Shown in pieces: positions 36,104 to 36,353 of a stretch of DNA of 64,000 nt (positions within the stretch are counted from its first letter, which is position 1; the number at the start of each line of letters is the position of its first letter). This stretch comes from an uncultured Ignavibacteria bacterium. Lineage in GTDB: Bacteria > Zixibacteria > MSB-5A5 > SM1-73. The position numbers and the translations under genes were made by a program. Location of the stretch: assembly GCA_964403165.1 (NCBI GenBank), contig CAYOFL010000001.1, positions 6,521 to 70,520 on the forward strand, written 5' to 3'. The notes beneath the pieces were generated by a model. The model did no database searches. It was not told the origin of the DNA and saw only the letters and a list, made by a program, of their open reading frames with translations.

Positions 36104-36183
36104 GTAGGTCAACCATGTCCTTTAGGACTGGTTGACATTATTTTGTCAAGCACCCCCGATGAATCGGGGGATGCATGACCTAC
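36104..36183. repeat. REP family C (copy C2)
   Basis: GTAGGTCAACCATGTCCTTTAGGACTGGTTGAC...GTCAAGC...GCATGACCTAC. Its right end overlaps the stop codon of the eno remnant. Confidence 0.8.
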
Positions 36184-36353
36184 AAATTCTTTATGTTGTA
36201 AAAAACCTTCTTTCCCAAAAACTTCGCCCTCTCTTTCAATTCCTCTTCTATGCGCAACAGGCGGTTGTACTTGCAGATTCTGTCTGTTCGTGAGGCGGAG
36301 CCGGTCTTTATCTGCCCGGCATTGGTCGCCACCACCACGTCGGCAATAGTAGA
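36180..36353 (-). pseudogene. eno: 3' remnant (last 57 codons) of a canonical enolase gene
   Basis: Manual translation gives [57 protein letters not shown], close to the consensus enolase C-terminus. An in-frame TAA lies immediately upstream, and REP C3 starts 4 nt away. Confidence 0.8.

Follow-up and report, generated by a model that had tools for sequence, protein, structure and literature searches.

A 3' fragment of canonical eno marks the probable in-place replacement of enolase by a permuted, membrane-anchored homologue

Results

Organisation of the eno locus

The locus described here lies in the window, by which we mean the whole stretch of 64,000 nucleotides that was analysed. The genome to which the window belongs (G000) is represented by an assembly of 3.62 Mb that is 93% complete and 7% contaminated. 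All features considered are encoded on the minus strand. Read in the 5' to 3' direction of that strand, they begin with a gene for a 729-amino acid protein (P729, positions 39534-41723), followed by an upstream region (39181-39533) and by a gene for a 934-residue, circularly permuted enolase (36376-39180), which starts at the ATG at 39180 with an AGGAGG sequence before it. A REP doublet termed C3 (36354-36427), composed of hairpin 1 and hairpin 2 (repeat families D3 and D6), separates this gene from a short stub of canonical eno (36180-36353) directly downstream. A second REP doublet, C2 (36104-36183), stands between the stub and an intact gene for a RAYT, i.e. a REP-associated tyrosine transposase of the IS200-like Y1 type (35588-36100; Pfam Y1_Tnp, E 6e-7). 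A third REP copy, C1 (35467-35577), stands between the RAYT gene and ftsB, a DivIC family member (35039-35458; Pfam DivIC, E 1.9e-21) with 87% nucleotide identity to its counterpart in the sister species G005. From ftsB onward the right flank is native and runs ftsB, recO, glyQS.

The two doublets bracket the stub and are shared with the genes that they touch. C3 abuts the stub on its upstream side and also supplies the last ~17 codons and the stop codon of the permuted enolase open reading frame (ORF), and the TAG stop codon of the stub falls within the GTAGG foot of C2. In the G000 assembly, hairpin 1 occurs 14 times, on 13 contigs. For hairpin 2 the whole assembly yields only 3 copies (36104-36136, 35472-35504 and 36358-36390), all of them around this RAYT. 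The Y1 (HUH) transposase gene is flanked by its cognate palindromic REPs, as expected of a RAYT/REP system.

The stub is the 3' end of a canonical enolase gene

The frame between the two doublets, read as 57 codons in an earlier note made from the sequence, corresponds to the last 55 residues of canonical enolase (residues 377-431 plus the stop codon) and has no start codon. In a profile search it hit Pfam Enolase_C (E 4.4e-19, 69 bits), the match covering positions 243-294 of the 296-position model, and tblastn aligned it with the C-terminus of the intact Eno of the congener G004 at 88.9% amino acid identity over 54 residues. With the Eno of G005, 52 of 54 residues are identical, and the stub departs from it by one substitution and in its last two residues; at the DNA level the stub and the 3' end of G005 eno are 86.6% identical, a level equal to that of the flanks. 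The earlier note had taken the frame for an enolase C-terminus, with an in-frame TAA (36354-36356) and the REP boundary directly upstream, with roughly the first 370 codons absent and with its stop overlapping the end of C2. Each of these points holds: the homology searches confirm that the stub is enolase-derived, the TAA stands immediately 5' of the stub at the REP boundary, the stop codon lies in the foot of C2, and the missing codons number 376 when counted from the true start (MPAIIG...) of the 431-residue G004 Eno.

What has been lost includes the N-domain, all metal ligands (D246, E290, D317) and the catalytic residues E168, E209, K342 and H370; of the active site, only the QIKTG lysine is kept. 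A Pfam search of the region detected no Enolase_N match beyond the permuted gene's own. As judged from its sequence, the stub is a gene fragment rather than a functional enolase and could not act as an enzyme. An ORF lister additionally reports an 85-amino acid frame (36109-36366, minus strand) and a 52-amino acid GTG-initiated frame (36338) over the stub, either of which gene callers may annotate as a hypothetical protein.

Close relatives carry an intact eno in the same slot

We searched 40 relatives with Pfam Enolase_C, and nearly all carry one canonical eno. In G004 the order of the locus is polyprenyl synthase, P729, eno, REP, RAYT, REP, ftsB, recO, glyQS. G005 has the G004 order with a 3.7-kb island instead of the RAYT, and in G001 the order is P729, an ORF of 340 amino acids, eno, ftsB, recO, glyQS, without a RAYT between eno and ftsB. 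All three congeners possess an orthologous intact eno between P729 and ftsB, in the slot held by the stub in the window. This comparison with related genomes, which the earlier note had proposed, supports its view that the stub derives from the housekeeping eno of the locus. In G005 the island (L025:1925-5505) takes the place that the RAYT has in G000 and G004, downstream of eno and ahead of ftsB. Its three genes encode products of 510, 277 and 372 amino acids, of which the 372-residue one is radical-SAM-like by eye.

At the DNA level G000 and G004 are collinear over the 3' end of eno (from position 36350), the REP and the RAYT and on into ftsB. The G004 RAYT, between intact eno and ftsB, is orthologous to that of the window and collinear with it at 73% nucleotide identity, and the G004 counterpart hairpin of C2 directly follows the stop codon of the intact eno, indicating that C2 is native. 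Since the RAYT and C2 stand beside an intact eno in G004, they were in place before eno was lost and cannot have caused it. By this sequence comparison the RAYT and REPs C2 and C1 would all be older residents of the locus that did not bring about the loss.

Other relatives carry the permuted gene in the eno slot and have no stub (G003, L028/L029, L030/L031, L032, L033/L034 and L042). The order P729, permuted gene, ..., ftsB is seen in G003, L028, L030, L027 and L042. We also considered whether permuted genes might hold the eno slot ahead of ftsB as a rule across phyla, and rejected this: a DivIC domain was found in only 12 of 115 ORFs downstream of permuted genes, most of them from this genus, and beyond the genus an ftsB immediately following the permuted gene is rare.

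The permuted gene encodes the probable remaining enolase of the genome

The permuted protein consists of an N-terminal transmembrane region with an HEMGH motif, followed by the Enolase_C barrel and then by Enolase_N. Pfam places Enolase_C at residues 320-604 and Enolase_N at residues 630-783, reversing the usual domain order. When aligned with the B. subtilis enolase (4a3r), the protein keeps all catalytic and metal residues, with equivalents of E168, E209, D246, E290, D317, K342, H370/R371/S372, K393 and the SGASTG serine, and contains its own counterpart of the C-terminal helix encoded by the stub. With these residues conserved, the permuted enolase is plausibly active.

Pfam search and tblastn agree that the G000 assembly contains two Enolase_C matches only, the stub and the permuted gene. 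No other canonical eno, intact or otherwise, was found by either method in the 3.62-Mb assembly, an absence that its 93% completeness and 7% contamination limit; the search of the bin suggested in the earlier note is answered to that extent. PGK and iPGM are encoded elsewhere in G000, and the enolase step is therefore required. As the sole enolase left in the genome, the permuted enzyme presumably runs the conversion of 2-phosphoglycerate to phosphoenolpyruvate, and on sequence grounds it would be the evident functional replacement of eno. The congener G003, 95% complete, likewise has the permuted form as its only enolase homologue.

The permuted family is large, with >980 homologues across many uncultured phyla (WOR-3, Stahlbacteria, Omnitrophota, Cloacimonadota, Aminicenantes, Planctomycetota, Dehalococcoidia and others). 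A full-text literature search combining enolase with circular permutation found no paper describing a permuted enolase family. In 27 of 40 species genomes that encode the permuted form a canonical eno is present as well, and the other 13 have the permuted form alone; given the 27 that keep both, the two enolases are not simply interchangeable everywhere. Tandem copies of the permuted gene occur on one contig in L041, L106 and L116. In many distant genomes (G059, G060, G064, G065, G073, G077 and others) the permuted-enolase match lies in open frames of 1,700 to >3,800 residues, and one such frame is listed at 15,690 residues; frames of this size suggest fusions to further large domains.

Two relations between the stub and the permuted gene were considered and rejected. 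Firstly, the permuted gene might have been born in situ by tandem duplication of eno, the stub being the unused last piece of the barrel. This is ruled out by divergence, the permuted domains being ~30% identical to the local eno and the stub ~89-96%, by the permuted family being ancient and spread across phyla, and by the lack of the gene in the sister species. Secondly, readthrough or frameshifting might join the stub and the permuted ORF into one product. The reading frame of the stub is, however, +1 with respect to that ORF, a TAA in the stub's frame stands directly upstream of it, and the permuted ORF stops 22 nucleotides before the stub. The spacing between the permuted stop codon and the stub is the same in L027 as in G000.

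The permuted gene appears to use the expression signals of eno

The region upstream of the permuted gene resembles L028 and not G005, the whole 397-nucleotide intergenic region being 83.6% identical to that of L028. A promoter scan of its proximal ~100 nucleotides found a promoter-like TTGAAA-17-TAAATT (39260-39232), followed by the AGGAGG ribosome-binding site and the ATG. In blastn comparisons, the ~100 nucleotides before the permuted ATG matched the sequence upstream of eno in G005 (75.5% over 102 nucleotides, E 5e-15) and in G004 (E 4e-10). The similarity to eno appears to extend a few codons past the start, with ATGCCGACAATCA in G000 against ATGCCGGCAATCA in G004. On this homology, the permuted gene appears to sit behind an eno-type promoter, ribosome-binding site and start codon. 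On this evidence the founding event would have been a swap of coding sequence behind the eno promoter and not the insertion of a foreign operon.

The locus is a mosaic of two ancestries

In every flanking gene, the sequence nearest to that of G000 is the one from G005 (RecO, 91% amino acid identity; P729, 84% amino acid identity; 83-88% nucleotide identity overall). The P729 genes of G000 and G005 are 84.4% identical over their full length at the nucleotide level, and P729 of the window is native and G005-like to its stop codon, where the left boundary of the replaced segment lies. Homology between G000 and G005 stops at ~39531, where P729 ends with its stop codon, and begins again precisely at 36350, the second codon of the stub. 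In a sliding window, identity to G005 falls from ~85% to background at ~39550, and there identity to L028 goes up to 87-89%. Relative to G005, the replaced segment would comprise the intergenic region and eno codons 1-376.

Phylogenies of the flanks and of the insert disagree. G000 and G005 are sisters in the P729 tree (support 100/99) and group together in the RecO tree (86/88); the permuted-enolase tree places G000 with L027, a distant congener (100/100). Nucleotide identity between G000 and L027 is 83.9% in the cassette and 69.6% in the ftsB-recO flank. L042 is also incongruent, its flank being near G000/G005 and its cassette near L028/L032. The GC content of the cassette (43-44%) is no different from that of the flanks, so the test is uninformative. 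The closest sampled cassette is that of L027, 16% diverged at the nucleotide level, and the actual donor is unsampled.

L027 carries a 56-codon stub, and the junction between REP and stub is identical in the two genomes: ...CCTACATAATCT|ACTATTGCC, where CCTACATAATCT is the 3' end of C3 and forms the junction with eno codon 377. Since this junction is common to G000 and L027 despite their diverged flanks, it travelled with the cassette and predates its arrival in G000. L027 additionally has a 5' fragment of eno at its contig start, upstream of the cassette, which ends ...ALDPAAS at residue ~248. This pattern is what would be expected if homologous recombination in the stub formed one end and illegitimate joining within the resident eno, at residue ~248, formed the other. 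A ~70-nucleotide element upstream of the L027 cassette (L027:242-310) has >20 dispersed sites in G000 at 80-90% identity and represents a separate small repeat family common to the genus.

The substitutions in the stub bear on its age. When polarised with L027 and G004, the changes on the G000 branch comprise 12 synonymous (all at third positions) and 1 nonsynonymous, a ratio compatible with a truncation that happened very recently and equally with constraint that has persisted. By a rough manual estimate based on these numbers, the neutral phase takes up at most ~one tenth of the branch since the G005 split. Informative sites divide along the stub, the ratio of L027-like to G005-like states being 4:0 in the first 18 nucleotides and 3:14 afterwards; with 7 and 14 informative sites, the Fisher test gives p 0.006 before correction for scanning breakpoints. 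These patterns fit a stub that would be mostly G000's own eno, recently cut, with the crossover just inside it. Its near-consensus sequence would be explained by its having been cut recently from a functional eno. Between the G000 and L027 stubs, the first 39 codons show 16 synonymous and 1-2 nonsynonymous differences (pS 0.55, pN 0.02); the low nonsynonymous change in L027 could mean that L027, too, received the cassette recently, or that some constraint acts on the stub. Continued constraint is unlikely, since the stub is gone from five related lineages that carry the cassette. The reverse history, with the cassette ancestral and eno regained in G005, was rejected: the G000 stub shares G005-specific states, and the G000 branch shows purifying selection.

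Origin of the stub

We conclude that the stub is probably the 3' leftover of the ordinary glycolytic eno of this lineage, the rest of which was swapped in place for a permuted enolase recombined from a related species. The replacement lies in the vacated slot with a phylogeny unlike that of its flanks, as seen in both the trees and the identity profiles, and close relatives (G004, G005, G001) hold an intact ortholog at the same position. In the sequence of events that we propose, an ancestor in the genus would have exchanged eno codons ~5-376 for the coding sequence of a permuted, membrane-anchored enolase. With the exchange placed behind the eno start, the new gene would use the promoter, ribosome-binding site and start codon of eno. 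The resulting allele would consist of the permuted gene, then the REP doublet, then eno codons 377-431, and would then have passed from one species of the genus to another by recombination in the conserved flanks, a presumed mechanism behind breakpoints that are themselves visible. It would have reached the G000 lineage after the split from G005, which retains an intact eno, with the left crossover at the 3' end of the P729 gene and the right crossover within the first ~20 nucleotides of the stub. A right crossover at the start of the stub would make most of the stub G000's own eno, truncated recently.

The earlier note had offered two explanations, deletion of most of eno by REP/RAYT-associated recombination with the permuted homologue as a possible functional replacement, and collapse of the contig across REP copies. 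In the first, functional replacement is supported, the permuted protein being the only enolase found and having its residues conserved; deletion by REP/RAYT is not, given the RAYT and C2 beside an intact eno in G004 and a segment that was exchanged and not deleted. A local event, in which REP/RAYT-mediated recombination within the G000 lineage removed ~376 eno codons beside a pre-existing permuted gene, does have features in its favour: a REP doublet lies exactly at the truncation point with the RAYT adjoining, one doublet bridging two truncated gene ends is the expected product of REP-REP recombination, and 3' of the CTAC foot a CT dinucleotide precedes the junction, CT being reported as a cleavage site of E. 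coli TnpA-REP. We nevertheless consider it unlikely. C3 and stub meet at an identical junction in L027, although its flanks share only ~70% identity with those of G000, which speaks against any event confined to the G000 locus; the sister species has neither the permuted gene nor a G000-type intergenic region; the RAYT and C2 coexist with an intact eno in G004; and on the 5' side a swap kept the eno promoter and start codon. The original junction may still have formed by REP-REP recombination in some ancestor.

That the stub has been kept by selection, as a small translated ORF from the GTG at 36338 or as an element for expression of downstream genes, appears highly improbable, even though its reading frame is intact in both G000 and L027 and their first 39 codons differ by 16 synonymous against at most 2 nonsynonymous changes. 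G003, L028, L030, L032 and L042 all carry the same cassette and have no stub; the GTG codons have no recognisable ribosome-binding site before them; the permuted enzyme has its own counterpart of the C-terminal helix; the 3' part of the G000 stub is G005-like, its clean sequence being explained by a recent functional origin; and an independent stub in L100, described below, has substitutions at normally invariant positions.

To an assembly error, whether a chimera of G005-like flanks with an L027-like cassette or an intact eno collapsed out across REP copies, we give scarcely any credence: the breakpoints do lie in conserved sequence, where assemblers can switch genomes, the bin is 7% contaminated and an alternative branch of ~1.2 kb would be too short for binning, but three other assemblies are 100% identical across both junctions, and a collapse could conceal an intact eno only if a REP copy lay within its reading frame, where it would itself disrupt the gene. 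These are a 16.6-kb contig of JGI sample 3300031864 and contigs from Logan assemblies of two separate sequencing runs, SRR9707467 and SRR9700529, all 100% identical to the window over their whole length. Each of the three (L192, L193, L194) spans P729, the intergenic region, the permuted gene, C3 and the stub. Both Logan contigs break only at 36107, inside C2, where a conservative assembly is expected to end at a repeat, and no second copy of P729, ftsB, recO or glyQS was found in the bin. Three identical contigs and single-copy flanks therefore make collapse and chimera very unlikely.

Permuted and canonical enolase genes meet repeatedly

Returning to replacement of eno by a permuted cassette, we compared the loci around 160 further permuted-enolase genes. 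In L100 (Ga0315289_10000068), whose permuted protein is 50% identical to that of the window, the cassette is embedded in a broken canonical eno, with codons 1-36 upstream (L100:4157-4468) and codons ~360-421 downstream (L100:7656-7937). The breakpoints are unlike those of the window, the eno fragments have substitutions at conserved positions, and further downstream lies a gene that is ftsB-like by eye and was missed by the FtsB profile. From these fragments, L100 appears to be a second, independent case of eno split by a permuted-enolase cassette. An antisense ORF, MTH938-like by eye, is embedded with the L100 cassette.

At ~19 of the 160 loci, from several phyla, an intact canonical eno lies immediately downstream of the permuted gene (L051, L060, L063, L066, L068, L087, L088, L097, L116, L117, L127, L130, L131, L133, L134, L136, L138, L151 and L154). 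The recurrence of this tandem pair suggests that the two genes are linked in function or in evolution. Two further genomes with the permuted gene deserve mention: in a Phycisphaerae MAG a 78-residue Enolase_C fragment (G080:C171:52028-52261) is the only canonical-type enolase match, and in G062 (C3:22188-23038) canonical eno is split into two adjacent frames.

Discussion

Few enzymes of central metabolism are as conserved as enolase, or as seldom replaced. The relic in the window indicates that canonical eno has been displaced at its own locus by a permuted, membrane-tethered homologue. Inherited eno signals together with the lack of another enolase provide what would be the strongest genomic argument available for the permuted protein being a working enolase. 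The locus also offers a clear case of the exchange of an essential gene between species by recombination through conserved flanks. In practical terms, completeness and pathway-inference pipelines would score such genomes as lacking enolase.

We tentatively raise a further idea, a possibility that we hold to be less probable than not: the permuted allele may act as a self-targeting replacement cassette, its homology arms being the eno promoter and start on one side and the 3' stub on the other. Such sequences rank with the most conserved of a genome; homology could thus steer incoming DNA to the eno locus of whichever related recipient it entered, and the core of the resident enzyme would be lost at the same time. 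The idea would account for the same junction in species with ~30% diverged flanks, the freshly truncated look of both sampled stubs, the extra eno 5' fragment of L027, expected from one-sided homology, and the cassette embedded independently between eno codons 1-36 and ~360-421 in L100.

How the locus compares with known systems can be considered from four sides. Firstly, relative to canonical enolase (EC 4.2.1.11; PF03952 and PF00113; B. subtilis 4a3r, E. coli 1e9i), the stub is near-identical to the last 55 residues and keeps the QIKTG lysine and the C-terminal helix; it differs in having no N-domain, metal ligands, catalytic Lys/Glu/His or start codon. Secondly, the E. coli tnpA-REP system, or REPtron, is reportedly bordered by BIMEs. 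The window resembles it in that an IS200-like Y1 gene is flanked by cognate hairpins with GTAG...CTAC feet and in that REP copies overlap the ends of neighbouring genes, and differs from it in that hairpin 2 is confined, with its three copies in the assembly, to one locus.

Thirdly, xenologous displacement in situ is a known type of event: for mosaic operons, Omelchenko and colleagues (2003) reportedly described how a horizontally acquired homologue takes the place of a gene in a conserved operon or slot. The window shares with such cases a housekeeping gene replaced at its own slot by a distant homologue of the same predicted activity, and flanks that keep the species phylogeny when the insert does not. 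It differs in that a relic survives and fixes the breakpoints within a few nucleotides, in that the incoming coding sequence took the resident promoter, ribosome-binding site and start codon, and in that the replacement enzyme is circularly permuted and membrane-anchored. The value of the present case lies in its nucleotide resolution, in the capture of the promoter and in its implications for the permuted family. Finally, homology-facilitated illegitimate recombination and allelic replacement occur during natural transformation. The resemblance here is that both ends of the foreign segment in G000 lie in sequence homologous between donor and recipient, and that L027 has one homologous end, in the stub, and one illegitimate end inside the resident eno at ~248; the difference is that the mechanism in the window is read from sequence mosaics only.
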